A DNA stretch of 64,000 nucleotides, from IMG/VR virus record IMGVR_UViG_3300028909_000001, one strand, 5' to 3'. The position numbers were made by a program, and so were the translations under genes. The stretch is from a virus. Taxonomy: Duplodnaviria; Caudoviricetes. Below, one piece after another: positions 3,894 to 61,140 of the stretch. How positions within the stretch are numbered: position 1 is the first letter of the stretch; each line of letters opens with the position of its first letter. Below the pieces are notes generated by a model. That model worked only from the letters and a program-made list of their open reading frames with translations. It was not told the origin of the DNA and searched no databases.

Positions 3894-4340
3894 ATGAAAA
3901 TAACTAAAAGAGGTAATAGATGGTATGACGAAAATAATAATAGTTGGATAACTGAAGAATCAGCTACTCTATACTCACCTACCCTAACTAATTGTATATG
4001 GTGTAGAGATTGTAGTGATTGTATTAATTGTAGTTATTGTAGTCATTGTATTAGTTGTATTAGTTGTAGTGATTGTAGTTATTGTAGTGGTTGTAGTAAT
4101 TGTAGTAGTTGTAATAATTGTAGTCGCTGTATTAATTGTAGTAGTTGTAGTTATTGTGTTGATTGTAATGATTGTAGAGATTGTATTAGTTGTAGGTATT
4201 GTAGAGATTGTAGTTACTGTGAATCAATTTATGATCTGAGTAATAAGATAAGTTTTGCAGCCCAATTTAAGGATAGACAAGAACCAACTATTAGGGTGGA
4301 AATAGATATTAATGATAGAAAACTGGAACCAGATTTGTAG
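3894..4340 (+). CDS. Cys-repeat family protein, copy 1 (ends RKLEPDL)
   Basis: Conserved MKITKRxNRWYDENNNSW...YSPTL N-terminus, (Cxx)n core, tag. Confidence 0.85.
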   Translation: MKITKRGNRWYDENNNSWITEESATLYSPTLTNCIWCRDCSDCINCSYCSHCISCISCSDCSYCSGCSNCSSCNNCSRCINCSSCSYCVDCNDCRDCISCRYCRDCSYCESIYDLSNKISFAAQFKDRQEPTIRVEIDINDRKLEPDL

Positions 4341-4355
4341 TATAGTTCTTTATTT

Positions 4356-5489
4356 ATGAGTGAAAAAATAGTATTTAATTTAAACAAACCCAGCCCAACT
4401 TTTATAGCTAGTGCAGATATTCATTTAGGTAAGAAATTGTATAATTTCCCTGAACTTGAAGAAGATTTACGAGATAATTTTGTGAGACTAGTAGAATTAG
4501 CTATTGAAAAAGATGTACGGTATTTAATTATTGCTGGTGATCTATTTGAGGATAATAATTATACCAAACCACATACTATAGCCTTCATAGCTAAATTAGT
4601 GGCAAAATTAGCCTTACATGACATTAAACTGATAGGAATTGCAGGAGATCATGATAAGCCCTTAAAAGGTGAAGCCTGGATAAGAATTAGTGATATTCTA
4701 CCAGTTACTATAGAACCATCTTTTACTGGATTGGACTATTTTGATTACTCTTATGTAACTGTCGATGAATTAGTTACAGCTCTTACAGGAGATAAAAATC
4801 CTGAAAATATTAAGTGGATTTTCCTACATTGTCAATTTCCACAGTTATTCAAGATGGCAGAACCCAAGAAACTAATAGATTTCAATAAACTTGAGTTATT
4901 TAAGAATTTCCCTAATTTACAAGGTATAATAGCTGGAGACATTCATTCCGGTCCTGAAACCAAGGCTTATGGTGTTAATAGAGAGGCTTATGTAGGTTAT
5001 ACTGGTAGTTTGGGTATAACGGATATAGCTGAGTCTAGAACTGTAAAGTCAGTGTTATATTGTGATGGAAAGAATCTAATTAGACTTCCATTCCAGCAAA
5101 GAAGAGCCTGGAAAGAAATTAATTTTCAAGGAGAGGCAGCTGTAAATTTTGATGTTTCAGCTGAGTTAGAATGGATAAATAAAGAAAAATTTAAACCAGT
5201 TTTGAAAATAAACTGGGACAATAATAGTGACCCTTATATAAATAAATTAACAGCCTTATATGAAGCGGCATTGGTTAAATTACAACAACATCCAATTGGT
5301 TCGTTAACAAATGATGAATGTGAAGAAGTACTGACTAGTCGATCAGATATTACTACTGACGTTAAAATTGAAAAAGCTCTACATTCTTGCTGTGATGGGG
5401 ATGAGGATTTATATACCTTATCTTTATCTTTGTTAAATAATGATGTCAAAGACACATTAGACCAATTTAAAGCCAAATATGAATTATGA
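4356..5489 (+). CDS. sbcD: SbcD/Mre11/gp47-like DNA repair nuclease
   Basis: ADIHLG, AGDLF, GDHD and GDIH metallophosphoesterase motifs; upstream of Rad50-like ATPase. Confidence 0.85.
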   Translation: MSEKIVFNLNKPSPTFIASADIHLGKKLYNFPELEEDLRDNFVRLVELAIEKDVRYLIIAGDLFEDNNYTKPHTIAFIAKLVAKLALHDIKLIGIAGDHDKPLKGEAWIRISDILPVTIEPSFTGLDYFDYSYVTVDELVTALTGDKNPENIKWIFLHCQFPQLFKMAEPKKLIDFNKLELFKNFPNLQGIIAGDIHSGPETKAYGVNREAYVGYTGSLGITDIAESRTVKSVLYCDGKNLIRLPFQQRRAWKEINFQGEAAVNFDVSAELEWINKEKFKPVLKINWDNNSDPYINKLTALYEAALVKLQQHPIGSLTNDECEEVLTSRSDITTDVKIEKALHSCCDGDEDLYTLSLSLLNNDVKDTLDQFKAKYEL

Positions 5490-5986
5490 GCAGGCCGGGT
5501 TATTGGAAAACAAAAGATGCTGGTGAAATACCTTATAGTATAATGGAAAATAGCCACGTTAAACATGCATTACGGTACTTACGCAAGACTATATTAGCTA
5601 CAGATACTAAGCCGAATTATAGAGTATATTGTGAAGGTAAGTTAATAGAGTTAGGAGAAGAAGCACAAAGAAGAGGTATAATTACTTCAGAAGATATAAC
5701 TACTGATGCATTAATGGCTCAGATAGAGGTGTGGCAAACTGAATGGGATAGTAGACGAACTGTGATGCCAGTTATACAAAGTTCAATTCATACTCCATCT
5801 AATATTGATTTAAGTAATATATTTAATACAATACCAACTCCTATTAGTATATATAAACCACGCATTTCAGTTATTATAGATGTGGATAAAGAGTTAAGTA
5901 GAGTGACTGGTTTAAGAATATACAACCCTAATAAAGAATATGATGAGGGAATGTTCATTAATAGGAGATTGGATATGGAACTATGA
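5486..5986 (+). CDS. Hypothetical protein with C-terminal tag (RRLDMEL)
   Basis: 166-aa ORF ending in tag. Confidence 0.7.
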   Translation: MSRPGYWKTKDAGEIPYSIMENSHVKHALRYLRKTILATDTKPNYRVYCEGKLIELGEEAQRRGIITSEDITTDALMAQIEVWQTEWDSRRTVMPVIQSSIHTPSNIDLSNIFNTIPTPISIYKPRISVIIDVDKELSRVTGLRIYNPNKEYDEGMFINRRLDMEL

Positions 5987-6153
5987 ACACAGATGATTAT
6001 GATTTAATAGAACGGATTATTGTAGTAGGTGATCGACTAGTTAATTATATTGATTATCCTCCAGATAAATATGAAGCTAAAGCATTGGAAGATTGGAAAG
6101 AAGCTACTAGAATATTTAGATCAATTATAGAAGAAAATAAAAGAAATCTATGA
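5983..6153 (+). CDS. Small ORF (56 aa) absent from ORF track
   Basis: MNTDDYDLIERI...KRNL; ATGA overlaps at both ends. Confidence 0.6.
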   Translation: MNTDDYDLIERIIVVGDRLVNYIDYPPDKYEAKALEDWKEATRIFRSIIEENKRNL

Positions 6154-6545
6154 CAATAACAAAAAGAGATAATAGATGGTATGATGAAAACAATAATAGT
6201 TGGAATACTGAAGAAGCAGCTACTATCTATTCACCTACTCTAACTAATTGTAGTAATTGTAGTGATTGTATAGGTTGTAGTGATTGTACTGATTGTAGTT
6301 ATTGTAGAGATTGTAGCTATTGTAATAATTGTAGTGATTGTAGTAGTTGTAGAGATTGTATTTATTGTAGTAGTTGTATTAATTGTAGTAGTTGTAGAGA
6401 TTGTAGTAATTGTAGAAGTTGTATTGATTGTAGTAGTTGTAGTAGTTGTAGTTATCATGGTGATTGGATTGATGATAAGAAATATATACCAGAAGTTAGA
6501 CCGTTTATAGATTGTAGAGATAGACTATTAGACCCTTATTTATGA
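6150..6545 (+). CDS. Cys-repeat family protein, copy 2 (ends RLLDPYL)
   Basis: Same tripartite architecture as copy 1. Confidence 0.85.
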   Translation: MTITKRDNRWYDENNNSWNTEEAATIYSPTLTNCSNCSDCIGCSDCTDCSYCRDCSYCNNCSDCSSCRDCIYCSSCINCSSCRDCSNCRSCIDCSSCSSCSYHGDWIDDKKYIPEVRPFIDCRDRLLDPYL

Positions 6546-11731: not shown

Positions 11732-12278
11732 AAATTCGAATACTGCTTTAATAGAGGAATTTTGCTATGAATTTGCTAAACAATGTAATTATGTGCTTAC
11801 TAAGAGTTTAAAAAGCCAGTTATATAATCCAGTTAGTAAAGCATTGGCTATTAGTAGAGAGTTAGAGGTAGAGCCAAAAGTCTATGTAGCAGCTCATGTC
11901 TATTTCTCTCCTTTATTAAAAGGTTATACTAAACTGACTCCAAATCAGCTGTATACTAGAGATTCCAAGACTTATGTTGAAGAATATCTTAAATTTGACA
12001 GACATATAGATAGAGAGTTTGAGACTCAATGTAGAATATTGGCTGAATGCCTGGATAATGGCTGGAAAGAAAGATTAGCTTTATTAAATTCTACTTTAGA
12101 CTTTTTACCCTGGTTTAGAGTATTAATATCTACGGAAAGAGATGAAGAAATTATTAGAGTATATAGTGATGTAGCTACTAATATGTTAAGAAATGATAAA
12201 CCTCTGCTAAACTATCTTAAGACAATTAAATCAGATAGTGGTCAGGGATTGGATTTTTCAAGGTTACCTAGATTATGA
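11721..12278 (+). CDS. Hypothetical protein in replication module
   Basis: 185-aa ORF between primase and DnaB. Confidence 0.65.
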   Translation: MYIENSNTALIEEFCYEFAKQCNYVLTKSLKSQLYNPVSKALAISRELEVEPKVYVAAHVYFSPLLKGYTKLTPNQLYTRDSKTYVEEYLKFDRHIDREFETQCRILAECLDNGWKERLALLNSTLDFLPWFRVLISTERDEEIIRVYSDVATNMLRNDKPLLNYLKTIKSDSGQGLDFSRLPRL

Positions 12279-33172: not shown

Positions 33173-33438
33173 ATGAATATATAGTAGGAGATGAAGTTTC
33201 TGTAACTCTTAATTCTGGTAATCGAGTTAAAGCAAAGATTATAAGTATTGATAATGACGAGCTTGCACTAAAGTTTGTAGAGTATACAGAGCTTGTAAAC
33301 ATTGATGCAAGCGGTGGTTCAAGCGGTGGTTCAGGCGGTTGGCCTACTATTCATAGACACATAAATGAGGTAATCTCTTTAGTATCTAAAACTAGAAAAG
33401 AAAATCCTTTTGATAGGAAACTGGAGTTTGATTTATGA
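33169..33438 (+). CDS. Small SH3/KOW-like family protein with tag (RKLEFDL)
   Basis: EYIVGDEV start, beta-rich; SGGSSGGSGG insertion. Confidence 0.65.
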   Translation: MNEYIVGDEVSVTLNSGNRVKAKIISIDNDELALKFVEYTELVNIDASGGSSGGSGGWPTIHRHINEVISLVSKTRKENPFDRKLEFDL

Positions 33439-33902
33439 AAATAACAAAAATAGCTAATAGATGGTATGACGAAAACAATAATAGTTGGTCTACAGAAGAA
33501 CTAGCTACTCTATACTCACCTACCCTAACTAATTGTAGATGGTGTAGAGATTGTAGAGATTGTAATTATTGTTGTCTTTGTAGTGATTGTAGTAATTGTA
33601 GTAATTGTAGTGGTTGTAGTGGTTGTAGTGGTTGTAGTAATTGTTATAATTGTAATTGGTGTAGTAGTTGTGGTAGTTGTAATAGTTGTTATAAATGTAC
33701 TGATTGTAATGATTGTAGAGGTTGTAGTAATTGTAGTAGTTGTTATAGTTGTAGTTATTGTGGTAATTGTAAAGATTGTTTTCACTGCTATTTATGTAAA
33801 ATTTGTAGTAACCTTAGATTTTATGAAAAAGGATCACAATTAAATACTATTATAAGAGTGGAGGCTAATGCTTTTGACAGAAAATTAGAAATAGACTTAT
33901 GA
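33435..33902 (+). CDS. Cys-repeat family protein, copy 3 (RKLEIDL)
   Basis: Family architecture. Confidence 0.85.
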   Translation: MKITKIANRWYDENNNSWSTEELATLYSPTLTNCRWCRDCRDCNYCCLCSDCSNCSNCSGCSGCSGCSNCYNCNWCSSCGSCNSCYKCTDCNDCRGCSNCSSCYSCSYCGNCKDCFHCYLCKICSNLRFYEKGSQLNTIIRVEANAFDRKLEIDL

Positions 33903-37090: not shown

Positions 37091-37615
37091 ATGACAATAA
37101 CTAAAAGAGACGATAGATGGTATGATGAACGAGGTAATAGTTGGAGAACAGAAGAATCAGCTACTACATACTCACTTACCCTAATTAATTGTAGAGATTG
37201 TAGTAATTGTAATAATTGTATAGGTTGTAGTAGTTGTAGTAGTTGTAGTGGTTGTAATAGTTGTAGTGGTTGTAGTACTTGTTATAATTGTAGTGGTTGT
37301 AGTGCTTGTAATATTTTTAATTATTGTCATGATTGCAGTAGTTGTTTTAATTGTTATAGTTGTACTGATTGTAGTAATTGTAGTGATTGTAATTATTGTA
37401 GTCGTTGTAGTGATTGTAGTAGTTGCAGTAATTGTATTGATTGTAATATTTGTAGTGATTGTAGTTATTGTAGTAGTTGTAGTAGTTGTACTAACTGTAA
37501 TCATTGTGAATTGTGTGGAAAATTAGTTGATCAAAAGTTTCAAGAAAAGATTAAAGACCCATTAATTAGGACAGAGTTTAATGTAGAAAACAGGTTACTA
37601 GAACCAGACTTATAA
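37091..37615 (+). CDS. Cys-repeat family protein, copy 4 (RLLEPDL)
   Basis: Family architecture. Confidence 0.85.
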   Translation: MTITKRDDRWYDERGNSWRTEESATTYSLTLINCRDCSNCNNCIGCSSCSSCSGCNSCSGCSTCYNCSGCSACNIFNYCHDCSSCFNCYSCTDCSNCSDCNYCSRCSDCSSCSNCIDCNICSDCSYCSSCSSCTNCNHCELCGKLVDQKFQEKIKDPLIRTEFNVENRLLEPDL

Positions 37616-40296: not shown

Positions 40297-40704
40297 ATGA
40301 CAATAACTAAAAGAGACGATAGATGGTATGATGAACGAGGTAATAGCTGGGATACTGAAGAAGCAGCTACTTTATACTCACCTACCCTAACCGATTGTAC
40401 TAATTGTTATAATTGTTATAGTTGTACTAATTGTAGTCATTGTAGTAGTAGTTGTATTAATTGTAAAGATTGTAGTAGTTGTAGAGATTGTTATAATTGT
40501 AGTAATTGTAGTAGTTGTAGAGATTGTTATTATTGTAGTAATTGTATTAATTGTAATAGTTGTAGAAGATGTAGTCGTTGTGATAGCTGTAGTGATTGTA
40601 GTGAGTGTATTGGTTGTAATGACTGGACTAATAATAAGAAATATGAACCAGTAATTAGACCATTTATAGATTGTAGAGATAGACTATTAGACCCTTATTT
40701 ATGA
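40297..40704 (+). CDS. Cys-repeat family protein, copy 5 (RLLDPYL)
   Basis: Family architecture. Confidence 0.85.
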   Translation: MTITKRDDRWYDERGNSWDTEEAATLYSPTLTDCTNCYNCYSCTNCSHCSSSCINCKDCSSCRDCYNCSNCSSCRDCYYCSNCINCNSCRRCSRCDSCSDCSECIGCNDWTNNKKYEPVIRPFIDCRDRLLDPYL

Positions 40705-45562: not shown

Positions 45563-46015
45563 ATGAAGATAACAAAACGAGAAGATAGATGGTATGACGA
45601 AAACGGTAATAGTTGGTCTACAGAAGAACTAGCTACTAGATACTCTCCTACTCTAACCAATTGTAGTAATTGTAATAATTGTAATTATTGTAGAGATTGT
45701 AGTTATTGTAGTAGTTGTATTTATTCTAATGGTTGTAGTAGTTGTAGTGAGTGTAATGGTTGTAGGAATTCTCTTAATTGTATTAGTTGTAATTGGTGTA
45801 GTAGTTGTGGTAGTTGTAATAGTTGTATTAGTTGTAGTGTTTGTAGTCTTTGTAGAGATTGTACTTATTGTAGTAATTGTAATAATTGTAGAAAATGTGA
45901 AAATTGTTATTTCGTTAGTAGTCTTGAAAATTACGCCCCACTTCTTAAATTTGAACCATCTTCAACTAGACCAGAATTAGATATTAATGATAGAAAACTA
46001 GAACCAGACTTATGA
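45563..46015 (+). CDS. Cys-repeat family protein, copy 6 (RKLEPDL)
   Basis: Family architecture. Confidence 0.85.
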   Translation: MKITKREDRWYDENGNSWSTEELATRYSPTLTNCSNCNNCNYCRDCSYCSSCIYSNGCSSCSECNGCRNSLNCISCNWCSSCGSCNSCISCSVCSLCRDCTYCSNCNNCRKCENCYFVSSLENYAPLLKFEPSSTRPELDINDRKLEPDL

Positions 46016-47831: not shown

Positions 47832-48284
47832 ATGAAACGACCTACAAGAAAAGCAACATTAGAAGATTCAGTAACGTATATTCTAGCAGAGATTAAAGAA
47901 TTAGAAGCTTGTCAATATCTGCTTACGCAGATCATTTATAAACTTACTAATGATTATGCACCGGATGATACTCTTTCTGATAGTGTAGCTAAGATAACTG
48001 AAAGAATAACTCGTAAAAAGTGCAGGCTGTTTGAACAATTAGCCACAATTTCTGTTCTTAGCCCAACTGCTGAAGCTAAGTTAAAACAAAGATTAATCGA
48101 TAAATTAAATAAATCTGGTTCATATTTCAGCAATTTTGTTAATCAATCTTGGACTGATATCTCTACCAACCCTGAAGAATTAAAGCAAACTATAAAAGAT
48201 CAGATGAGTAAAGCATTACAAGTAAGAGAGGATGAGGTAGATATGATAGCAGTACCTAAAAGGAAGTTAGAACCAGATCTATGA
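47832..48284 (+). CDS. Tagged helical hypothetical protein (RKLEPDL)
   Basis: 150-aa ORF ending in tag. Confidence 0.7.
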   Translation: MKRPTRKATLEDSVTYILAEIKELEACQYLLTQIIYKLTNDYAPDDTLSDSVAKITERITRKKCRLFEQLATISVLSPTAEAKLKQRLIDKLNKSGSYFSNFVNQSWTDISTNPEELKQTIKDQMSKALQVREDEVDMIAVPKRKLEPDL

Positions 48285-48736
48285 AGATAACTAAACGAGA
48301 AAATGATAGATGGTATGACGAAAACAATAATAGTTGGGAAACTAAAAAATTAGCTACTTTACACTCACCTACCCTAACTAATTGTAGTTGGTGTGGTGGT
48401 TGTAGAGATTGTAGAGATTGTAGAGATTGTAGAGATTGTAGAGATTGTAGTAATTGTAGTGATTGTAGTAATTGTAGTTGGTGTGGTGGTTGTAGTTATT
48501 GTATTTGTTGTAATCAGTGTATAAGTTGTAGTTATTGTAGTGGTTGTAGTAATTGTAGTTATTGTAGTCATTGTAATAATTGTAGTGATTGTGGTTATTG
48601 TCATTATTGTAGAAAATGTGAAAATTGTTATCTCGTTAGTAGTCTTGAAAATTACGCCCCACTTCTTAAATTTGAACCATCTTCAACTAGACCAGAATTA
48701 GATATTAATGATAGAAAACTAGAACCAGATCTATGA
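48281..48736 (+). CDS. Cys-repeat family protein, copy 7 (RKLEPDL)
   Basis: Family architecture; 3' ~120 nt nearly identical to copy 6. Confidence 0.85.
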   Translation: MKITKRENDRWYDENNNSWETKKLATLHSPTLTNCSWCGGCRDCRDCRDCRDCRDCSNCSDCSNCSWCGGCSYCICCNQCISCSYCSGCSNCSYCSHCNNCSDCGYCHYCRKCENCYLVSSLENYAPLLKFEPSSTRPELDINDRKLEPDL

Positions 48737-49107
48737 AGATAACTAAACGAGAAAATGATAGATGGTATGACGAAAACAATAATAGCTGGGATAGTGAAGA
48801 ACTAGCTACTTTCTATTCACCTACCCTAACTACTTGTAGTTATTGTAGTGGTTGTAGTTATTGTAGTAATTGTAGTAGTTGTAGAGATTGTAGTTATTGT
48901 AATCTTTGTAATGATTGTACTCGTTGTACTAATTGTGATTATTGTGATAATTGTAGTCATTGTGGTTATTGTAGTGATTGTAGTGATTGTTTAGGTTTAT
49001 ATAATTATCGAGATAAAGAAAATTTAGAACCTCAAGTAAGAATATTACCTCCAACATCAAGAATAGAATTAGATATTAATGATAGGAAATTAGAACCAGA
49101 CTTATGA
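48733..49107 (+). CDS. Cys-repeat family protein, copy 8 (RKLEPDL)
   Basis: Family architecture; tandem with copy 7. Confidence 0.85.
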   Translation: MKITKRENDRWYDENNNSWDSEELATFYSPTLTTCSYCSGCSYCSNCSSCRDCSYCNLCNDCTRCTNCDYCDNCSHCGYCSDCSDCLGLYNYRDKENLEPQVRILPPTSRIELDINDRKLEPDL

Positions 49108-50633: not shown

Positions 50634-50636
50634 TTT

Positions 50637-51500: not shown

Positions 51501-51511
51501 ATAATTAACTT

Positions 51512-51588: not shown

Positions 51589-51617
51589 AACTAATAACAA
51601 CAATAATAACTAAACTT

Positions 51618-52328: not shown

Positions 52329-52373
52329 TTCTACATAATAGTGATTTAATAATCGAAGACTAGACCCTTTCTT

Positions 52374-52781
52374 ATGACAATAACAAAAATAGCTAATAGA
52401 TGGTATGACGAAAACAATAATAGCTGGTTATCAGAAGAAGCAGCTACTCAATACTCACTTACCCTAACTAATTGTAGTAGGTGTAGTGATTGTAGTAATT
52501 GTATTGATTGTAGAGATTGTAGTAATTGGTGTAGTAATTGTAATAATTGTAGAGATTGTAGTTATTGTATATATTGTAGTGATTGTAGTTATTGTATATA
52601 TTGTATTGATTGTAATATTTGTAGTGATTGTAGTAGTTGTATTAATTGTAGTAATTGTAGTGATTGTAGAGATTGTAGTAGTTGTATTGATTGTAGTGAT
52701 TGTACTAATAATAAGAAGTATGAACCAGTAACTAGACCATTTATAGACTGTACTAACAGACTATTAGAACCAGATTTATGA
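52374..52781 (+). CDS. Cys-repeat family protein, copy 9 (RLLEPDL)
   Basis: Family architecture. Confidence 0.85.
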   Translation: MTITKIANRWYDENNNSWLSEEAATQYSLTLTNCSRCSDCSNCIDCRDCSNWCSNCNNCRDCSYCIYCSDCSYCIYCIDCNICSDCSSCINCSNCSDCRDCSSCIDCSDCTNNKKYEPVTRPFIDCTNRLLEPDL

Positions 52782-53026
52782 CAAATATCACAGTACGAGA
52801 TAAATATGACCAATCTATAGAAGTAGGAAATAATGTTATAGTAAAGTATTATGGCAGTATTTATAAAGGAACTGTCATTAATATTAAACTAATAAATAGT
52901 ACTGGGACTAGTACCAGTGATTTTTGTGCTCATTTAAGAGATTATTGGATTAAAGTTATCATCCATTCACCTATTAGAGGAGATAAAGAGATAACTAGTA
53001 AATCAGGAGAAATAATAAGAATATGA
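52778..53026 (+). CDS. Small SH3/KOW-like protein, untagged
   Basis: IEVGNNVIV...GTV pattern. Confidence 0.5.
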   Translation: MTNITVRDKYDQSIEVGNNVIVKYYGSIYKGTVINIKLINSTGTSTSDFCAHLRDYWIKVIIHSPIRGDKEITSKSGEIIRI

Positions 53027-53323
53027 AATATAATCTAGTTCAAATTCGTAGTCATATAAAGAATCAACTTCGTGTTTCCTTTGAAGAAATTGAAATAGAA
53101 GGTGAAGTAATAGAAATCAGTTCACCAATGAATACTGGATTTTATTATTGCCTGGCTAAAAGAGGCAAGAAATATGCTTTTGATAGATTAAAGAAACATT
53201 TAATAAAAATGTATGATAAAGAAATTACAAAGATAACAAAAGAGTTAGACATGCTTAAAGCCGTAGAATATCCACATCGAAAAATAAGACATTAATGATA
53301 GAAAGTTGGAACCAGACTTATGA
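53023..53323 (+). CDS. Hypothetical protein whose tag (DINDRKLEPDL) lies in the +1 frame
   Basis: Stop at 53293-53295; tag codons at 53288-53323 one base out of frame. Confidence 0.65.
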
Positions 53324-53751
53324 CAATAACAAAAAGAGCTGATAGATGGTATGACGAAAACGGTAATAGTTGGATAACTGAAGAACTAGCTACTACTGAC
53401 TCTCCTACCCTAACTAATTGTTATAATTGTAGAGGTTGTAGTAATTGTAGAGATTGTAGTTATTGTATATATTGTAGTGATTGTAGTAATTGTATTAGTT
53501 GTATTAGTTGTAGTGATTGTAGTAATTGTAGTAATTGTTATAGTTGTATTGATTGTAGTAATTGTAGTGATTGTTATAGTTGTAGAGATTGTAGTAGTTG
53601 TATTGATTGTAGTAGTTGTAGTGGTTGTAGAGATTGTAGTAATTGTAATAATTGTATTTATTGTAGTGATTGTACTAATAATAAGAAGTATGAACCAGTA
53701 ACTAGACCATTTATAGACTGTACTAACAGACTATTAGAACCAGATTTATGA
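53320..53751 (+). CDS. Cys-repeat family protein, copy 10 (RLLEPDL)
   Basis: Family architecture; last 92 nt identical to copy 9. Confidence 0.85.
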   Translation: MTITKRADRWYDENGNSWITEELATTDSPTLTNCYNCRGCSNCRDCSYCIYCSDCSNCISCISCSDCSNCSNCYSCIDCSNCSDCYSCRDCSSCIDCSSCSGCRDCSNCNNCIYCSDCTNNKKYEPVTRPFIDCTNRLLEPDL

Positions 53752-54593
53752 AAGCACATTGGATCATAGAAAATTTTACAGATTCGGAGGATTACAGGGA
53801 TTTAATTAAAGCAGTAAAAGATTTAGGCAAGGAATGCTTTGTAATAGATAAACGTAATCATTTTGATTTTAATCCTGCCTCATTTGTGGAAAATGAATGT
53901 GTAATAGTTCAAGGGTCAATTCAAATGGTTAAGAATATAGAATCTAGGTTACCTAAAAATTGCTTTCCCATCAAATATTGCACCTTCAACAATTATCTTT
54001 GCTCGGTTTACTATCCTAAATTAAAAGACTTCCTATTTAATGATAAGTATGTATTACTTCCGCTAAAAGAACTTAAAGAGAATAAGTTTGATTATTATCA
54101 GAAGTTTGGAAAAGAAGCACTTATATTTGTAAGACCGGATAGTGGAGAAAAGACATTTCAAGCCCAACTCTTAGATTTGCAGGATTTCGACAGATTTTGG
54201 ACTAACTCTATAGCTTCCAGTACTTTAGATGATGATTTAGTACTAGTTTCTACGCCTAAAGATATAATAGGTGAGTGGCGTTTTATATGTTCAAAGTATA
54301 ACGATGGGGAAATCATAACTCAATCTACTTATCGATATCAAGGCAAGTTATGTTATATACCTGCTGCACCTGTTAAAGCAACTGAACTTTGTAAAAATAT
54401 ATTAAAGGTTCAATATTACCCAGACTCTGTTTTTTGCATAGATATCTGCCAGGCTGGGGATAACAAGTTCTATTTATTAGAATTAACCTCCTTTTCTAGT
54501 GCTGGTCTATATGCTACCGATAAAAAGAAGATAGCAACTAGAGTAAGTGAAATAACCGAATTTGAATATGGAAGAGAAATATTCTATAGGTGA
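53748..54593 (+). CDS. ATP-grasp protein (R2K/DUF4343-like)
   Basis: FVRPDSGEKTF, GEWRF, FCIDI, LLELTSFSSAGLY. Confidence 0.75.
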   Translation: MKAHWIIENFTDSEDYRDLIKAVKDLGKECFVIDKRNHFDFNPASFVENECVIVQGSIQMVKNIESRLPKNCFPIKYCTFNNYLCSVYYPKLKDFLFNDKYVLLPLKELKENKFDYYQKFGKEALIFVRPDSGEKTFQAQLLDLQDFDRFWTNSIASSTLDDDLVLVSTPKDIIGEWRFICSKYNDGEIITQSTYRYQGKLCYIPAAPVKATELCKNILKVQYYPDSVFCIDICQAGDNKFYLLELTSFSSAGLYATDKKKIATRVSEITEFEYGREIFYR

Positions 54594-54810
54594 TCTTGTT
54601 GAATTATTAAATTTAGGTGAAGGGGAGATCGTCTCTATAAAAAACACTTATTATCATATGAGAATGTTGAATCATGTATCTATTGGTAAACGTGATTTAG
54701 ATCCGGGAGATATACTTAATGTGTGGCCTGACGAAATAGTAAAAAAGATAGTAATTCTAAGACCTGATTATAGTAACTTAGATGAAAGAAGAATTGATAT
54801 TGAATTATGA
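54562..54810 (+). CDS. SH3/KOW-like family protein with tag (RRIDIEL)
   Basis: YSIGDLV start. Confidence 0.65.
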   Translation: MNMEEKYSIGDLVELLNLGEGEIVSIKNTYYHMRMLNHVSIGKRDLDPGDILNVWPDEIVKKIVILRPDYSNLDERRIDIEL

Positions 54811-55055
54811 ATGATTATAAGGTAGGTGATGTGATTGAGGCTTTTTATGTAGCATCTATTTATTGTACAGGTAAAATAGTAGAATTTAAGTTTAAGGGAG
54901 TTCTCATACGTATACTAGAAGACATGAATTACAATGATATAATATGTTATCCTAGTAATACACAGTTATTTCTCCCATTTGAAAATATCATAGGGTTTAG
55001 TCAACTTATTAGAACAGAAAACATATATGAACGAAACCTTGACCCATATTTATAA
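54807..55055 (+). CDS. SH3/KOW-like family protein with tag (RNLDPYL)
   Basis: YKVGDVI start. Confidence 0.65.
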   Translation: MNDYKVGDVIEAFYVASIYCTGKIVEFKFKGVLIRILEDMNYNDIICYPSNTQLFLPFENIIGFSQLIRTENIYERNLDPYL

Positions 55056-55293
55056 TATAGGTGATGAAGTTAGTGGGAATTATGCACAATTAGCTGAGTT
55101 TAAAGGATTTATAGTATCATATAAATTTTATTTCAATAAACCTTGGTATTATGTACAGCTAACTGAACGCATATTTATACACAAAGAATTACCTATAGGT
55201 TGGATCATAGCTGTTTCAGAGATGGAAATTAAGGAAGTTAAAAAATTAAGAAAAGAAAACATATATGAGCGAAACCTTGACCCATATTTATAA
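55027..55293 (+). CDS. SH3/KOW-like family protein with tag (RNLDPYL)
   Basis: YNIGDEV; start overlaps previous tag. Confidence 0.65.
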   Translation: MNETLTHIYNIGDEVSGNYAQLAEFKGFIVSYKFYFNKPWYYVQLTERIFIHKELPIGWIIAVSEMEIKEVKKLRKENIYERNLDPYL

Positions 55294-55483
55294 TATAGGT
55301 GATGAGGTGGCATTTTATAGAGGTACTCATAGGTTTGAAGGTAGAATAATAAATAGCGCAGCATTTCATGATCATTGGTGTGTTCAATTATTGAACTCTA
55401 AATTTATGTCAGTACATAAACAATGTTGTAATAAAATTAGAAAAGAAAATCCTTTAGATAGGAAACTAGAGCTTGATTTATGA
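55265..55483 (+). CDS. SH3/KOW-like family protein with tag (RKLELDL)
   Basis: YNIGDEV; start overlaps previous tag. Confidence 0.65.
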   Translation: MSETLTHIYNIGDEVAFYRGTHRFEGRIINSAAFHDHWCVQLLNSKFMSVHKQCCNKIRKENPLDRKLELDL

Positions 55484-56037
55484 CAATAACTAAAAGAGAT
55501 AATAGATGGTTTGACGAAAACAATAATAGCTGGGATAGTGAAGAAGAAGCTACTCTATACTCACCTACCCTAACCGATTGTACTAGTTGTTTTAATTGTT
55601 ATAGTTGTATTGATTGTAGTAGTTGTATTGATTGTAGAGATTGTAGTAGTTGTATTGATTGTAGTAATTGTAGAGATTGTACTAGTTGTGATAGTTGTAG
55701 TGGTTGCATTGATTGTAGTGGTTGTGTTGATTGTAGAGATTGTAGTGGTTGTAGTGGTTGTATTTATTGTATATATTGTAGTGATTGTAGTGAGTGTTAT
55801 GGATGTAGAGATTGTAGTAATTGTAGTAATTGTTATAGTTGTATTGATTGTAGTAATTGTAGTGATTGTAGAGATTGTAATAATTGTAGAGATTGTAGTA
55901 GTTGTATTGATTGTAGAGATTGTAGTTATTGTAGTAGTTGTATTGGTTGTAATGACTGGACTAATAACATGAAATATGAACCGGTAATTAGACCATTTAT
56001 AGACTGTACTAACAGACTATTAGAACCAGACTTATGA
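55480..56037 (+). CDS. Cys-repeat family protein, copy 11, longest (RLLEPDL)
   Basis: Family architecture, 185 aa. Confidence 0.85.
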   Translation: MTITKRDNRWFDENNNSWDSEEEATLYSPTLTDCTSCFNCYSCIDCSSCIDCRDCSSCIDCSNCRDCTSCDSCSGCIDCSGCVDCRDCSGCSGCIYCIYCSDCSECYGCRDCSNCSNCYSCIDCSNCSDCRDCNNCRDCSSCIDCRDCSYCSSCIGCNDWTNNMKYEPVIRPFIDCTNRLLEPDL

Positions 56038-56276
56038 CACAAAAGGAATATAAAGTAGGAGATGTGGTTGATTTTGAGGTTAGTAATTTGAAAGGAATAG
56101 GAACTATAACACCATATAATGGAGACATAATGTATGCTGTAATTATAGAGGAATTTCCCGGTATACCTAGTAGAACTAAATGGCATATATTTCCTGATGA
56201 AATAACAGGTATACATGTTGAACCTAGAATAGAATTTGACATCACAAAAGATAGAAGATTAGAGTTAGAACTATGA
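56034..56276 (+). CDS. SH3/KOW-like family protein with tag (RRLELEL)
   Basis: YKVGDVV start. Confidence 0.65.
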   Translation: MTQKEYKVGDVVDFEVSNLKGIGTITPYNGDIMYAVIIEEFPGIPSRTKWHIFPDEITGIHVEPRIEFDITKDRRLELEL

Positions 56277-56527
56277 ATGAATTTGAAGAAGGAATGAAAG
56301 TTATAGTTACTTTTTATAGCGGTAATAAAGCTGTAGGAATAATAATATGGTATGCTGATGATACTTCCTATGAAGTTGAAGTCTTGCATTATACAGAAAT
56401 TAATGATAAAGAGAAAACGGTGGAGACATTTCCAAATCCTTATAGTAACATTAACTTCATAAATACCGAAGCAATACCAAGTAGAACAGAGAATCCTTTT
56501 GATAGAAAATTGGAACCAGATCTATGA
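56273..56527 (+). CDS. SH3/KOW-like family protein with tag (RKLEPDL)
   Basis: FEEGMKV start. Confidence 0.65.
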   Translation: MNEFEEGMKVIVTFYSGNKAVGIIIWYADDTSYEVEVLHYTEINDKEKTVETFPNPYSNINFINTEAIPSRTENPFDRKLEPDL

Positions 56528-56775
56528 GTGAATATAAAGTAGGAGATGTTGTAGTTTATTGGTCTATTAGTTCTAACTCAGAGGCAGTTGCTAAGATAGT
56601 CGAAACCGATTGGACTAGTTTTAATTATTTAAGGGTAATTATAATAAAACATGATCATCTTAGTGCAGGTACATCAATTTATTTAACAGAGAGTGAAATA
56701 ATAAGATTGGACGGTCCCATTATAAAACACTGTTTTGATATTATGTTAGATAGAAGATTAGATTTGGAACTATAA
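56524..56775 (+). CDS. SH3/KOW-like family protein with tag (RRLDLEL)
   Basis: YKVGDVV start. Confidence 0.65.
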   Translation: MSEYKVGDVVVYWSISSNSEAVAKIVETDWTSFNYLRVIIIKHDHLSAGTSIYLTESEIIRLDGPIIKHCFDIMLDRRLDLEL

Positions 56776-56907
56776 GTAACTGTTTTACCTTATATACCAC
56801 ATTCTCTACTCCAATCTACCACTCTCTCCCCATAATCCTCCCCATCACTCACAATTTCAACTACTTACGAAACTTGTATTAACTCTATATAATAACTTTC
56901 CAACTAT

Positions 56908-57174
56908 ATGAATCCTAAAGTAGAACTAATAAAAATAAACAAAATCCCAATTAGTATAGGTGTGGATAAATACGTATTCCCTATTAAAAATAGTATAGTA
57001 CATCATAACCAAGACTCACTACTAGGCTCTACTATAGTATCAGATCCAGGTTATAGTGTATTAGGATTTCGCCGTGACCCTAAAGCTCTATCCAACCATA
57101 ATCTAGCCTTTGAACTAGCAGAACTAGCCTGGAAAATACAAGAATTTGATCTTATATATGAAAACACTAGCTAA
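56908..57174 (+). CDS. Hypothetical protein
   Basis: 88-aa ORF. Confidence 0.5.
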   Translation: MNPKVELIKINKIPISIGVDKYVFPIKNSIVHHNQDSLLGSTIVSDPGYSVLGFRRDPKALSNHNLAFELAELAWKIQEFDLIYENTS

Positions 57175-57391
57175 CTACCTCAATGACCCGGATAATGACT
57201 TAACTGTTGAACTTGATGCTGAATTATTAAAGAAGATTCAACTAGATACTCTTTATAGTCTATTAATTAAGAGTACTGAAGCCTTAAATCTGCCTGCTAT
57301 CTCTAAGGAGCATACTGATATAATGGTAATTCATTTAATCCTTAATGAAATAGAACTTTTGAAATATGGATTCAACATTAAAGAAGTGTAA
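57146..57391 (+). CDS. Hypothetical protein
   Basis: 81-aa ORF. Confidence 0.5.
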   Translation: MILYMKTLANYLNDPDNDLTVELDAELLKKIQLDTLYSLLIKSTEALNLPAISKEHTDIMVIHLILNEIELLKYGFNIKEV

Positions 57392-57414
57392 GAAACTAAT
57401 AACCTGGGCTGAGC

Positions 57415-57615
57415 ATGAAATTAAAGATTGAATACTTGAAACTACTATATAAAAGAGTACTTAACTGTATATACTATGCTTGTTTGACTGACCAATACTT
57501 AAGTTGTATAGTACTAATTATAGTTTATCCTATATCTCTTATTATAGTGAATCTATATAACAAAGTTGTAATTAAAGATAGTAAACCTAATTGTTGGAAT
57601 GATTTTTTCTTCTAA
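57415..57615 (+). CDS. Small membrane protein
   Basis: Hydrophobic CIVLIIVYPISLIIV segment. Confidence 0.5.
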   Translation: MKLKIEYLKLLYKRVLNCIYYACLTDQYLSCIVLIIVYPISLIIVNLYNKVVIKDSKPNCWNDFFF

Positions 57616-57618
57616 GAT

Positions 57619-57942
57619 ATGACAATAACAAAAAGAGCTGATAGATGGTATGACGAACGAGGTAATAGTTGGTTATCAGAAGAATTAGCTACTTTATACT
57701 CACCTACCTTAACTAATTGTAGTTATTGTGATGATTGTAGTAATTGTAGAAATTGTAGTAGTTGTAGTAATTGTAGTAGTTGTAGAGATTGTATTAGTTG
57801 TTATGATTGTAACGATTGTAAATATGTCTGTTGCCTGACAGACAGAACAAGATTTACTGCTCAATTCGAACCTGCTACAGAAGATACTATAATAAGACCT
57901 GAACTTGACATTAATAATAGAAGACTTGAAATTGAACTATGA
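57619..57942 (+). CDS. Cys-repeat family protein, copy 12, shortest (RRLEIEL)
   Basis: Family architecture, 107 aa. Confidence 0.85.
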   Translation: MTITKRADRWYDERGNSWLSEELATLYSPTLTNCSYCDDCSNCRNCSSCSNCSSCRDCISCYDCNDCKYVCCLTDRTRFTAQFEPATEDTIIRPELDINNRRLEIEL

Positions 57943-58205
57943 ATGAATTTAATATAGGTGACATTATTTCTGTAACATTTACTTTTTCTGGTAATCAAGC
58001 TATTGGTGTTGTAATTGACGATGATAATTTTATGATCACGTCTTATACTAAAGTACTTAAACCAGACTATGTAGTTAAAGGTTTATCAGACCGTGAACCT
58101 CTTTATGGATGTAATATAAGGAATATTCAACTAGTATCACGGAGTATTAGACAAGAAGTTAGACAAGAAGACCCATTTTCCCGTAACCTAGACCCATATC
58201 TATGA
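57939..58205 (+). CDS. SH3/KOW-like family protein with tag (RNLDPYL)
   Basis: FNIGDII start. Confidence 0.65.
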   Translation: MNEFNIGDIISVTFTFSGNQAIGVVIDDDNFMITSYTKVLKPDYVVKGLSDREPLYGCNIRNIQLVSRSIRQEVRQEDPFSRNLDPYL

Positions 58206-58651
58206 ATGAAGAATACCTTAAACTAGTTAAAGAACTGCAAACTACAGTAAAAATTGAATTGGACAAAGCTCCACTAAAAGATAATTACTCCCCAAACTAT
58301 CCTGAAGCATCTGTTAATACCTTGGCAGTTAATATAGGTATTATTATAGATGATAGATTTAGTGTTAATGACTTATCCAATACTAACACTATAAACCCTC
58401 CTATTAAGCTCTATTGGCTCCAGGTCACGTCCTATAATGATTTTGAAGTCTTCCTGTCTACTAGAGGTATTCCAGCCTATATCTCATTTGACGGTGATCT
58501 AGGCCCTAAAGTAAAGGATGGTGAGGATTGCGCCAAACTACTTGTAAAGGTATGTAAGGCCAATAAGTTGAAAGAACTACCTCAATACGAATGTCACTCC
58601 CCTACCCTCTCTAAGAAACAGAAGATAGAAGAGATACTATTAAACTATTGA
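58202..58651 (+). CDS. Cyclic-phosphate-processing receiver (cREC)-like domain protein
   Basis: ISFDGDLG...DGEDCAK...CHS pattern. Confidence 0.55.
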   Translation: MNEEYLKLVKELQTTVKIELDKAPLKDNYSPNYPEASVNTLAVNIGIIIDDRFSVNDLSNTNTINPPIKLYWLQVTSYNDFEVFLSTRGIPAYISFDGDLGPKVKDGEDCAKLLVKVCKANKLKELPQYECHSPTLSKKQKIEEILLNY

Positions 58652-58654
58652 TTA

Positions 58655-58954
58655 ATGAGAACAGAGCTTGAATGTAATAAGAGAGACTTGGAGGATCATC
58701 TATTATCAGAAGCTATTGAAAGCTTTAGTAATATTCTCTCTAATAATGGTTGTAATGATCTTTATATACCGAATACTGAGGAAGCTAGGCTACTTTGGGA
58801 TGAATATCAAGCTTGGAACCTCAAAACTCCTTTAACCGAGCTTAAAGGACATGTAGATTACTGGCCACCCTACGTCGATTCCAAGAATAGGTTAGTAGTA
58901 TATGATTCTTTATTCATATACTTATTGCGAAAACGTACAGGTTTGCTAGATTAG
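58655..58954 (+). CDS. Hypothetical protein
   Basis: 99-aa ORF. Confidence 0.55.
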   Translation: MRTELECNKRDLEDHLLSEAIESFSNILSNNGCNDLYIPNTEEARLLWDEYQAWNLKTPLTELKGHVDYWPPYVDSKNRLVVYDSLFIYLLRKRTGLLD

Positions 58955-58961
58955 ACTTTAT

Positions 58962-59050
58962 GCCTATGTGGTGGAATTGCTAGACACCCGGGAATTAAGA
59001 TCCCGTGACCTTCAAAAGTCGTGCAGGTTGAAGTCCTGCCATGGGCACCA
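58962..59050 (+). tRNA. tRNA-Leu(TAA)
   Basis: GCCTATG/CATGGGC, CGGGA-ATTAAGA-TCCCG, long variable arm, T-loop TTGAAGT, CCA. Confidence 0.88.
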
Positions 59051-59064
59051 ATTTAAATAACATT

Positions 59065-59262
59065 ATGGCTCAATTAATAATAAAGAATATTACCATGAAT
59101 CAAGCCAAAGTATTAGCTAGTTACTACCAAAGACAAGGGGAACAACACGCTGAAGTATGGTTTGAAGACAGAAACGAAGAAACACCAATAGTAGATGTAT
59201 CAAAATGTCCTTGGTTAATAGTAGATGAAAAAGAAGAAACTGTAACTATTATTTGTAAATGA
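59065..59262 (+). CDS. Small hypothetical protein
   Basis: ATG 14 nt after tRNA-Leu. Confidence 0.55.
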   Translation: MAQLIIKNITMNQAKVLASYYQRQGEQHAEVWFEDRNEETPIVDVSKCPWLIVDEKEETVTIICK

Positions 59263-59591
59263 AACTAACAAAACGAGAAAATGATAGATTCTATGATGAA
59301 AACAATAATAGTTGGATAACAGAACAACTAGCTACTGTATATTCACCTACGCTGATTAATTGTAGATATTGTAGTGATTGTAGTAATTGTAGTAATTGTA
59401 GTAGTTGTATTAGTTGTTATATATGTGTTAATTGTAGTAATTGTAGTGAGTGTTATAGATGTAGAGATTGTATTAGTTTGTATAGACATTACAACGAAGA
59501 AAAATTAAAACCTCAGAAGTATGACACTGAAGATACTATAATAAGACCTGAACTTGACATTAATAATAGAAGACTTGAAATTGAACTATGA
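59259..59591 (+). CDS. Cys-repeat family protein, copy 13 (RRLEIEL)
   Basis: Family architecture; C-terminus shared with copy 12. Confidence 0.85.
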   Translation: MKLTKRENDRFYDENNNSWITEQLATVYSPTLINCRYCSDCSNCSNCSSCISCYICVNCSNCSECYRCRDCISLYRHYNEEKLKPQKYDTEDTIIRPELDINNRRLEIEL

Positions 59592-60568
59592 CCACCAATA
59601 ATTTAGAAGAATTTGGTACTAAACTACCAGAACATACAGCTAAATCTAATCAGATTATGATACCTGATGCTATCCTTTATGCTGCACCAGAAGAAATCAA
59701 TGTAGCTAATGGATCAGCTCAAACTCCTACTCAATGGACGGAGCCAGTTTCAGGAATGTTTTTATCCACACCTGAAACAATTAAGAAGTTACCGTCTAAT
59801 GTATATAAGTATGTAGCTTATTCAGATAATAAATGGGGTTTTCTGAAAGTTAATATCAATGTTGACGAACTACTATTACTACCTGATAGTACTTCAGATC
59901 TAGTACTTCAAGAGATTCAAACCTTTCTAGACAATGCGGAAACCTTTAAATACTATGATGTATTGCATAGAAGAGGGTTCTTATTCTATGGTCCAGCAGG
60001 TTCAGGCAAGACTTGCTTAGTACAACAAATCATTAAGAAGGTGATTGACCAGAATGGAGTGATTTTGCTTTGTGATAACCCACAAGCTATCGAACTAGGT
60101 TTAAGAGACCTTAGAGCAGTTGAGCCAGATAGATTCATAGTTTGTCTATTCGAAGATATTGATGCCTTGATTCAGAGATATGGAGAGAAGGAGATTCTTG
60201 CTATATTAGATGGTGAAAGTCAAATCAACAAAGTCTTGAATATAGGAACAACTAATTACCCTGAAGTATTGGATAGGAGAATCATTAGACCTCGTAGATT
60301 TGATATGGTGATTAAGATTGACTGGCCTAGTGAAGCAGTTAGACGACATTATTTTAAGAATAAGCTTAAGATTGATGACAAAGAACTGGGTAAGTGGGTT
60401 AACGCCACGGATAAGTTCTCCTTCGCTGCTTGTGCTGAGTTGATGATTAGTGTTAAATGTCTGGGTAAGGATTTTGAGAAAGCAGTGGAACATTTACGTG
60501 AATTAATGAAACATAAACCAGATAGCCGGGATTTTAACAGCCCTGCAGACTTTAATATAGGACATTAG
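59588..60568 (+). CDS. AAA+ ATPase (BCS1-like)
   Basis: RRGFLFYGPAGSGKT, FEDID, TTNYPEVLD, RPRRFD. Confidence 0.85.
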   Translation: MTTNNLEEFGTKLPEHTAKSNQIMIPDAILYAAPEEINVANGSAQTPTQWTEPVSGMFLSTPETIKKLPSNVYKYVAYSDNKWGFLKVNINVDELLLLPDSTSDLVLQEIQTFLDNAETFKYYDVLHRRGFLFYGPAGSGKTCLVQQIIKKVIDQNGVILLCDNPQAIELGLRDLRAVEPDRFIVCLFEDIDALIQRYGEKEILAILDGESQINKVLNIGTTNYPEVLDRRIIRPRRFDMVIKIDWPSEAVRRHYFKNKLKIDDKELGKWVNATDKFSFAACAELMISVKCLGKDFEKAVEHLRELMKHKPDSRDFNSPADFNIGH

Positions 60569-60575
60569 TTTTAAA

Positions 60576-60664
60576 GGATAGTTAACTAGTAAAGTTACTA
60601 GAACAGTTTACTAAACTGATTGCTCCTTAACTGGAGTGGGGAGCATTACCTCAGCTATCCTCCA
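60576..60664 (+). tRNA. tRNA-Ser with unusual ACT anticodon
   Basis: GGATAGT/GCTATCC acceptor (G1G2A3), CAGT-TTACTAA-ACTG, long variable arm, atypical T-loop AGCATTA, CCA. Confidence 0.7.
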
Positions 60665-60672
60665 ATTTACTT

Positions 60673-61140
60673 ATGAAACTAACAAAAAGATATAATAGAT
60701 GGTATGACGAAAATTATAATAGTTGGGATACTGAAGAATCAGCTACTCAATACTCACCTACCCTAACTAATTGTAGTAGGTGTAGTGATTGTAGATATTG
60801 TAGTCTTTGTAATTATTGTAGTAATTGTAGTAATTGTAATGATTGTATTACTTGTATTAATTGTAGTGATTGTACTCGTTGTATTAATTGTAGAGGTTGT
60901 ATTTGTTGTAATCAGTGTATAAGTTGTAGTGATTGTAGTAATTGTAGTAGGTGTACTAGTTGTAATCGTTGTAGCGGTTGTAGCGGTTGTAGTGATTGTA
61001 CTCGTTGTATTGATTGTAGTTGGTGTAGTTTACTTATAGATAGAATAAGATTTTTCCCACAAACTGGCCCTGACAACTCGGAACTAATAACTAGAAAAGA
61101 AATAGCATTAACAGATCGAAATCTGGAACCATTTTTATGA
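60673..61140 (+). CDS. Cys-repeat family protein, copy 14 (RNLEPFL)
   Basis: Family architecture. Confidence 0.85.
   Translation: MKLTKRYNRWYDENYNSWDTEESATQYSPTLTNCSRCSDCRYCSLCNYCSNCSNCNDCITCINCSDCTRCINCRGCICCNQCISCSDCSNCSRCTSCNRCSGCSGCSDCTRCIDCSWCSLLIDRIRFFPQTGPDNSELITRKEIALTDRNLEPFL

Follow-up and report, generated by a model that had tools for sequence, protein, structure and literature searches.

Phage proteins in which a short N-terminal cap is followed by a long array with cysteine at every third residue, (Cys-x-x)n, are already present in catalogues of phage protein families, a named example being gp032 of Campylobacter phage CPt10 (YP_009168969.1), which matches the family phrog_15341 (function unknown) at E 6.8e-37 and carries the cap motif W.D..NN.W...tEE.A...S.tL.nC ahead of its (Cys-x-x)n array. 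The family is large and widespread in phages, catalogued and uncharacterised, and literature searches returned no experimental study or description of a (Cys-x-x)n phage family. Another described system with repeats of this kind is that of the heterocycloanthracin/sonorensin precursors of thiazole/oxazole-modified microcins (TOMM; TIGR03601), which are 50-70 residues long, in which a conserved leader precedes a Cys-Xaa-Xaa core that varies between strains by triplet indels and a short conserved motif stands at the extreme C-terminus, and whose maturation genes may lie far from the precursor (Haft 2009, PMC2674419). Here we describe 14 members of the phage family encoded in a 64,000-nucleotide stretch of DNA (the window, by which the whole stretch analysed is meant) that comprises bases 21525-85524 of the 85.7-kb IMG/VR virus record IMGVR_UViG_3300028909_000001 (CheckV completeness 39%). 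New in this phage are the extent to which the family has expanded, the hypervariability measured for the arrays at strain level, their codon signature, and the exchange of the folded end domain found in relatives for a short shared C-terminal tag.

The cysteine-repeat genes and the variation of their arrays

A six-frame regular-expression scan of the window, with at least four consecutive C-x-x units as the criterion, yielded exactly 14 frames, all on the + strand, among which all of the dispersed open reading frames (ORFs) listed in the preliminary description of this DNA were recovered at their coordinates:

Copy 1, 3894..4340, + strand: 148 amino acids (aa), 26 Cys; tail ...IRVEIDINDRKLEPDL; phrog_15341 at E 1.4e-15
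Copy 2, 6150..6545, + strand: 131 aa, 24 Cys; tail ...RPFIDCRDRLLDPYL; phrog_15341 at E 7e-12
Copy 3, 33435..33902, + strand: 155 aa, 32 Cys; start ATG in overlap with the stop codon of a tagged ORF upstream
Copy 4, 37091..37615, + strand: 174 aa, 36 Cys; phrog_15341 at E 1e-14; a tRNA gene lies 13 nt upstream
Copy 5, 40297..40704, + strand: 135 aa, 26 Cys; register shifted by a one-residue insertion
Copy 6, 45563..46015, + strand: 150 aa, 26 Cys
Copy 7, 48281..48736, + strand: 151 aa, 29 Cys; five CRD units in succession
Copy 8, 48733..49107, + strand: 124 aa, 18 Cys; start overlaps the stop of copy 7 (ATGA)
Copy 9, 52374..52781, + strand: 135 aa, 27 Cys
Copy 10, 53320..53751, + strand: 143 aa, 30 Cys; an unbroken run of 29 triplets; stop overlaps the start of an R2K_2 ATP-grasp gene
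Copy 11, 55480..56037, + strand: 185 aa, 43 Cys, 42 triplets; isoelectric point (pI) 4.05; phrog_15341 at E 2.7e-29
Copy 12, 57619..57942, + strand: 107 aa, 14 Cys; shortest array, 12 triplets; phrog_15341 at E 2e-8
Copy 13, 59259..59591, + strand: 110 aa, 13 Cys; stop overlaps the start of an AAA ATPase gene
Copy 14, 60673..61140, + strand: 155 aa, 30 Cys; phrog_15341 at E 7.9e-18; stop overlaps the start of a Tad4-homologue gene

Every protein (107-185 aa) begins with a head of 33-34 aa that is conserved in all 14 copies (consensus M[TK][IL]TK[RI]xxRW[YF]DExxNSWxxExxAT..SPTL) and continues into a core of 12-42 Cys-x-x triplets, no two of these cores being alike, after which a linker of 13-28 aa ends, again in all 14, in R-x-L-[DE]-x-x-L. 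With 13-43 Cys per protein, cysteine makes up 12-23% of residues and occurs as continuous overlapping CxxC units; the proteins are mostly acidic (pI 4.05-6.5) and have no signal peptide. Strict conservation within the arrays is confined to the spacing of the cysteines. The leading triplets are CSN, CRD, CSS, CSD, CSY, CSG and CID, with mostly Ser, Arg or Ile at the second position and mostly Asp, Asn, Ser or Tyr at the third. All-against-all BLASTP grouped the 14 copies in a single cluster, which is the record's largest paralog family, and when the record was searched with copy 11 in the manner of tblastn, all 14 copies were matched, at E-values from 9e-11 to 2e-119.

Comparison with the phage profile database, which had been suggested as a check with a hidden Markov model of the head, placed the family in PHROG 15341, i.e. 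in a catalogued family of unknown function rather than a characterised one: all six copies tested matched (E 2e-8 to 2.7e-29), over profile positions ~7 to ~146 of 276. For six copies no Pfam family was matched, metallothionein families, PF00805 and PF00132 included, and for eight copies NCBIfam (including TIGR03601) gave no precursor or other relevant match at E <= 10. The match of MinC_N_1 to the tail of copy 1 was rejected as being at chance level (16.9 bits and E 0.008 in Pfam, where the cut-off is 27; E 0.073 in NCBIfam). A tblastn search with copy 11 against GenBank phages gave no match, probably because of the low-complexity filter.

The count of 14 holds for the window and falls short as a total, since related loci of the same lineage add further copies. 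One such locus (L014) carries 10 further Cys-repeat ORFs together with four other tagged ORFs within 11 kb, and another (L012) carries three more, of which one has a transmembrane tail, one (P0009) a folded C-terminal domain and one the tag; a genome of ~218 kb probably contains 27 copies or more. That the 14 ORFs are genuine accessory genes under selection, as had been assumed at the outset, follows from the open frames that are kept through indels between strains and from the ratio of non-synonymous to synonymous divergence (dN/dS) of the head, which is 0.46 at an ordinary synonymous divergence (dS 0.33).

The arrays stand out by their codons. Cysteine is written as TGT in 363 of 367 cases, compared with 85% in background genes of the same phage; serine as AGT in 225 of 232 (42% in the background), asparagine as AAT in 113 of 116 (81%) and aspartate as GAT in 98 of 100 (80%). 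Of 1103 core codons, 990 end in T, and C makes up 1.9% of the core coding strand. An array on a contig of an unrelated phage (L011:3914-4126; 31% GC) is frozen on a different set, with cysteine written only as TGC, GAC fixed and codons mostly ending in C, and the CPt10 array has mixed codons, so that codon freezing marks the recent amplification of a founder unit and not a general constraint. The arrays of the window are built by amplification of 9-nt units of the form TGT-ANT-NAT.

Strains of the same phage reveal how the arrays change. For copy 1, a strain whose flanks are 98-99% identical (L005) differs by 9- and 36-nt indels and by some 14 point changes at first and second codon positions, all of them confined to the 5' half of the array and to a patch in the head. 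A broader comparison was made with the record IMGVR_UViG_3300037172_000055 (G003), which has a 100% identical RecA and of which 13.4 kb could be aligned: divergence was 15.4% in the arrays, 6.8% in heads and tails and 0.8% in non-family DNA, i.e. the pace of array divergence from strain to strain is about 20-fold that of neighbouring DNA, and the description of the cores as hypervariable is confirmed. The orthologues of copies 3, 4, 5 and 6 change in length from 155 to 160, from 174 to 165, from 135 to 147 and from 150 to 153 aa, respectively, and all four stay open and keep the tag; the array of the copy 3 orthologue has been rewritten. In G003, as alignments that overlap indicate, a single gene has arisen by merger of copies 7 and 8, and blocks such as CICCNQCISCSDC sit in different copies in the two strains. 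The arrays thus evolve by slippage of units, unequal crossing-over and exchange between paralogs, while selection keeps the frame, the cysteine spacing, the head and the tag. A diversity-generating retroelement, which would fit the fixed third base, was considered and put aside: the targets are many, and the changes consist of mosaic segments and unit indels, not of adenine-specific substitutions. No template repeat or reverse-transcriptase domain was present in the annotations looked at, no dedicated search having been made.

The shared C-terminal peptide

The terminal peptide, which the preliminary description had treated as a fixed part of the Cys-repeat family, turned out to have a wider distribution. 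About 15 further small ORFs of the window (72-166 aa), which are devoid of Cys repeats and unrelated to the family, end in R-x-L-[DE]-x-[DEYF]-L-COOH. Their positions in the window are as follows:

Other tagged ORFs, ending at 5986, 33172, 33438, 34632, 35074, 35501, 44643, 48284, 55055, 55293, 55483, 56276, 56527, 56775 and 58205

By all-against-all BLASTP, paralog groups among these ORFs have at most three members; PHROG scans of ten of the proteins gave no usable match, and the precomputed Pfam annotations in the contig tables are empty for them. The codons of the tag vary synonymously (Arg as AGA, AGG, CGA or CGT; Leu as TTA, CTA, CTG or CTT), and for the final eight codons of 29 tagged ORFs, a set that includes the 14 Cys-repeat copies, the proportion of synonymous differences (pS) is 0.72, which is saturated, at a dN/dS of 0.13. 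It is therefore the peptide itself that is under selection. Most tags also contain [IV]-R-x-E about 12 residues before the end, an R-x-E-N/D motif occurs some 12 residues upstream in many of the tagged ORFs without Cys repeats, and one subfamily of tails has Phe in place of Glu (RPFIDC...). The stop codon is TGA in 22 of the 29 tagged genes, usually as [TC]TATGA, the ATG of which often starts the next gene.

The tag also extends beyond this phage. A distant relative, the 54-kb fragment IMGVR_UViG_3300049830_000086 (G001; RecA 68% identical, GC 42.6%), encodes four tagged ORFs on the - strand (reverse-complement coordinates):

1851-2387, - strand: tagged ORF ending in ERRLDTDL
29819-30319, - strand: tagged ORF ending in PRRLDPDL
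41656-42042, - strand: tagged ORF ending in ERNLDTEL
50078-50443, - strand: tagged ORF ending in ERRLDTEL

No Cys-repeat gene was found in this fragment, and the tag is therefore older and more general than its use by the family. Its sequence distribution points to a shared address or docking peptide and not to a feature of the family.

Two other accounts of the tag were dropped. The R2K_2 ATP-grasp protein, encoded within the densest block of tagged genes, had been the favoured reader of the tag; complex prediction of this protein (with ATP and Mg) against the last 48 residues of copy 10 scored 0.17 (mark 0.34), which counts neither for nor against it, and R2K_2 was also not found in the strain fragment G003, which has 24 tagged ORFs. 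A role of the corresponding DNA as the Shine-Dalgarno element of the next gene was rejected, as the Arg and Leu codons vary synonymously, the spacing would be ~15 nt and only 3 of 36 genes have such an element.

Source phage and gene setting

The record derives from an abundant peat phage with a genome of roughly 218 kb. Public assemblies contain exact copies of its proteins in over 50 index blocks, the contigs being as long as 0.2-1 Mb, and 15 peat metagenome runs contain at least 90% of the sampled words from a 6-kb stretch; megablast of 9 kb of the window against phages gave no match. GC content of the window is ~33% and the + strand carries nearly all genes. With a Shine-Dalgarno-like sequence upstream of only 3 of 36 gene starts, the window suggests that the host probably starts translation without one.

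The Cys-repeat copies are interspersed with replication, recombination and accessory genes. Their neighbours encode SbcCD-like proteins, a helicase, an intein-bearing protein, PolA with a UDG domain, RecA, a DNA ligase, the R2K_2 ATP-grasp protein, AAA ATPases, a JAB protease, a ThiF/E1-like protein and a weakly radical-SAM-like protein, and about 17 tRNA genes lie near or among the copies. Individual features are listed by window position:

12275-14686: intein-containing 803-aa protein with Hom_end_hint and Hom_end domains, a gene of the replication region
24427-24924: JAB protease (PF14464, 23.6 bits, under the 25-bit cut-off)
25199-25810: ThiF/E1-like protein (PF00899, 38.9 bits, above cut-off), with the JAB gene close by
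37005-37077: tRNA, found by Rfam (41.2 bits) and missed by ARAGORN; anticodon GUC (Asp) by our own reading; 13 nt before copy 4
42461-42531: tRNA, found by Rfam (51 bits) and missed by ARAGORN; anticodon GAU (Ile) by our own reading
53748-54593: R2K_2 ATP-grasp protein (PF18299, 33.9 bits, above cut-off)
61137-61466: Tad4 homologue, an inhibitor of type I Thoeris (PF25186, E 4e-11, above cut-off); start overlaps the stop codon of copy 14

The stretch directly upstream of copy 14 (60576-60672) contains no tRNA according to ARAGORN or Rfam (E <= 1). R2K_2 is a family of predicted ligases that join peptides to proteins. A few other observations concern the rest of the record: a classical AAA ATPase (PF00004 plus AAA_lid_3) is seemingly split between record positions 20349-21269 and 21561-22331 (the second part being window 37-807), at its Walker A motif (...GVLLAG / IPGTGKT...) and by ~290 nt, possibly an intron or an insertion of another kind; the 100-aa protein at 21736-22038 has a weak iREC match only; and a 130-aa ORF at 20943-21335 is missing in the ~99% identical strain L005 owing to an indel of ~400 bp.

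Putative function, alternative explanations and comparison with known systems

Some guidance as to the form of the arrays comes from relatives of the family. A subset of the 32 unnamed metagenomic relatives returned by a protein search has head and array followed by a domain of ~70 aa, phrog_20532 (...IGSR..TT.Y...CGCF.GTL.EF...H...), in place of the tag. This end domain, which is not found on the 14 window copies, follows Cxx arrays in P0009 (from the same phage lineage), P0022 and P0025, whereas in Ruminococcus phage phiRM10 gp34 and in a protein of Paenibacillus phage Pd_22F it comes after hexapeptide repeats of the YdcK/bactofilin type (PF18836, E 1.5e-41). Its profile matches 2209 representative clusters at E <= 1e-3, and among the best 150 of these there are 52 with Cxx arrays, 52 with the domain alone, 10 with hexapeptide-like repeats, five with pentapeptide repeats and 31 others. 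The domain is modelled with a predicted local distance difference test (pLDDT) score of 95.8; comparison with solved structures was uninformative (E > 0.3 with Foldseek, Z <= 5.2 with VIA-align), and the same fold occurs at the C-terminus of AFDB proteins named as pentapeptide, hexapeptide, bactofilin or leucine-rich repeat (LRR) proteins. The Cxx array thus belongs to a set of interchangeable repeat modules held between a cap and an end piece, and its position in the slot of pentapeptide, hexapeptide and bactofilin solenoid repeats supports a rod-like reading by that analogy and not by direct evidence. Two further proteins with the domain are worth recording: P0068 has a period-3 array of (Thr-Ala-x)n where others have Cxx, and P0067 ends in ...DDDDLPF, resembling the C-terminal tip of bacterial SSB.

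We propose, tentatively and as a reading that we hold to be somewhat short of probable, that the proteins are cytoplasmic rods with a core of thiolates, which the tag delivers and which serve in the conflict between phage and host. Each protein would consist of three modules, namely an N-terminal cap, a (Cys-x-x)n array and the C-terminal address peptide R-x-L-[DE]-x-x-L-COOH. The proteins are taken to be cytoplasmic because they have no signal peptide, and in the reducing cytoplasm the array would fold as a thin rod, the core of which is a line of thiolates that most likely hold Zn or a different soft metal, with two CxxC knuckles to every run of four Cys, while the two variable positions would form a polar, mostly acidic rod surface. 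The tag would dock all tagged proteins on one putative common partner, a hub or sorting machine, and the diversified rods would act there as decoys or inhibitors. Conflict with the host is suggested by the speed of array change and the accessory setting of the genes; for an anti-defence role as such there are only hints, in that same setting and in the Tad4 homologue gene overlapping the stop of copy 14.

Several points weigh against this proposal. In the AlphaFold2 model of copy 10 (46-row alignment) the head is confidently predicted (pLDDT 82-88) and appears as a small folded N-terminal cap made of a beta-hairpin and a helix, but the array and the tail reach only 38-47 (the array ~45), and the model was not used for fold searches; the structure prediction advised in the preliminary description has thus been informative for the head and not for the array. 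Identity autocorrelation within the arrays is flat, at 0.18-0.23, whichever multiple of 3 is taken, and shows neither a peak at 12 nor a period longer than 3 that would define a coil. The beta-solenoid envisaged earlier is accordingly plausible from the shared end-domain architecture and is left without backing by either the AlphaFold2 model or the periodicity of the array. Metal binding by the arrays is purely conjectural on our part. The divergence of the arrays could reflect slippage and gene conversion under weak constraint instead of diversifying selection. Lastly, as regards expression, contigs from RNA libraries of four peat metatranscriptomes extend over much of 43000-62500 and take in parts of copies 6, 13 and 14 (one contig over 45803-46276 for copy 6, contigs over 59370-59792 for copy 13), which is a weak hint of transcription, since the depth is low and carried-over DNA is possible.

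Rather unlikely, in our judgement, is the alternative that the proteins are a bulk sink of metallothionein type for metal, sulfur or redox equivalents, in which Zn, Cu or Fe would be sequestered or oxidants buffered by the total thiol while the variation of the arrays is neutral drift. A cysteine content of 12-23% in overlapping CxxC units, arrays in which Cys alone is conserved, and a high copy number are all what such a sink would predict; it would nevertheless have no need of a conserved folded cap or of a strongly selected address tag, and the Pfam searches of six copies, which covered the metallothionein families, were negative. Relatives in which the array is swapped for Cys-free solenoid repeats while the end domain is kept, moreover, point to a role for shape or surface rather than for thiol chemistry.

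More ambitious than the proposed thiolate-cored rods as such, and in our opinion unlikely, is the idea of a complete phage address system, in which the tag would route at least 30 small effectors from unrelated families to one hub, the largest of these families being a recombining set of at least 27 Cys-cored rods with surfaces reshuffled between paralogs and strains, which would serve as a repertoire of decoys, akin to antigenic variation, against host defence. The arrays would then adopt a never-described repeat fold with three residues per side and a thiolate or metal core.

An improbable candidate is a set of precursors of ribosomally synthesised peptides with post-translational modifications (RiPPs), with the head as leader, the Cys/Ser core modified to thiazoles and oxazoles or to radical-SAM thioethers, the tail as follower or recognition sequence, and the whole forming a combinatorial library of the prochlorosin kind. 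The layout is formally like that of heterocycloanthracin (PMC2674419), and the window encodes the ThiF/E1-like protein and a 286-aa protein with weak likeness to radical SAM enzymes (27.2 bits against a cut-off of 29.5). The latter, however, fits no maturase family or equivalog, the ThiF gene lies close to the JAB protease gene, and neither YcaO (PF02624) nor, in a six-frame search at E <= 0.01, radical SAM (PF04055) was found within the 85.7-kb record, which is 39% complete. The Cys-repeat proteins themselves have no TIGR03601 or Pfam match; at 107-185 aa they are larger than the heterocycloanthracin precursors, from which they differ also in their predicted folded head and in being phage-borne and multi-copy. 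Relatives in which a cap precedes the array and a well-folded C-terminal domain follows it, and tails on proteins without any Cys array, speak against a precursor as well.

We give an equally poor chance to the explanation that the tag is a capsid- or virion-loading peptide, comparable to encapsulin cargo or T4 capsid-targeting peptides, which would be cut at the upstream R-x-E so that the rods are injected together with the DNA. One terminal peptide common to many unrelated small proteins would suit this, as would the [IV]-R-x-E motif present ~12 residues from the end of most tags, which recalls the Glu-cutting prohead proteases (T4 gp21 and phiKZ gp175 both cut after Glu); against it, the genes lie among replication, tRNA and accessory genes and not in the head module, and the Glu in question is replaced by Phe in one tail subfamily. 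That the ORFs are functionless selfish or decaying ones, i.e. 9-nt minisatellites expanding in a duplicated gene, is highly improbable, for although extreme codon homogeneity, unit indels and the fusion of copies by unequal recombination are what would be expected, all 14 copies and the four compared orthologues keep open frame, Cys period, head and tag despite 15% divergence and altered lengths, head and tag are under purifying selection, and the family is retained across distant phages.

Among solved structures the best match by sequence is the Tenebrio molitor antifreeze protein (TmAFP; 1EZG) at E 1.4e-4, with a composition bias of 36 bits. TmAFP is a secreted, disulfide-bonded protein with a clear 12-residue period. 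The likeness to the proposed rods lies in a thin solenoid with a Cys-filled core and a surface of Ser, Thr and Asn, the core being in this case that of a disulfide-bonded beta-helix; the difference is that its cysteines stand at every sixth residue (TCTxSxxCxxAx), whereas those of the window arrays stand at every third, in proteins that lack both the 12-residue period and a signal peptide. Alike in general plan are phiRM10 gp34 and the Pd_22F protein (QVQ56278.1; phrog_7964), in which a cap, a repeat module and a C-terminal end piece are likewise arranged in succession, but with Cys-free solenoid repeats, and with the end domain where the window copies have the tag. The tag itself may be set beside short terminal docking or sorting motifs such as the beta-clamp-binding QL[SD]LF or QLxLxL (Pol IV), the cargo-loading peptides of encapsulins and the C-terminal tip of SSB, with which it shares its position at the very C-terminus, an alternation of hydrophobic and acidic residues, its occurrence on unrelated proteins and strong purifying selection. 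It meets the consensus of none of them: it has no Gln and often has Pro at -2, and next to the beta-clamp motif in particular it shows L at positions -4 and 0, with either Pro or a hydrophobic residue at -2.

Should the arrays be metal-cored rods, they would represent a new minimal solenoid architecture, and should the tag be an address code, it would offer a direct handle, through peptide pull-down, on a hub that organises dozens of jumbo-phage accessory proteins. The arrays lend themselves to population genetics without culture, since numerous peat samples contain the same phage. In CPt10, the named relative, two places of the genome match, the protein ends inside its array and the array codons are mixed; the phage of the window, in contrast, has 14 copies that end in the tag and arrays with nearly one codon per residue, which makes it the case in which the behaviour of the family, from paralog expansion and ~20-fold divergence to segment exchange and the replacement of the end domain by a tag, becomes measurable.

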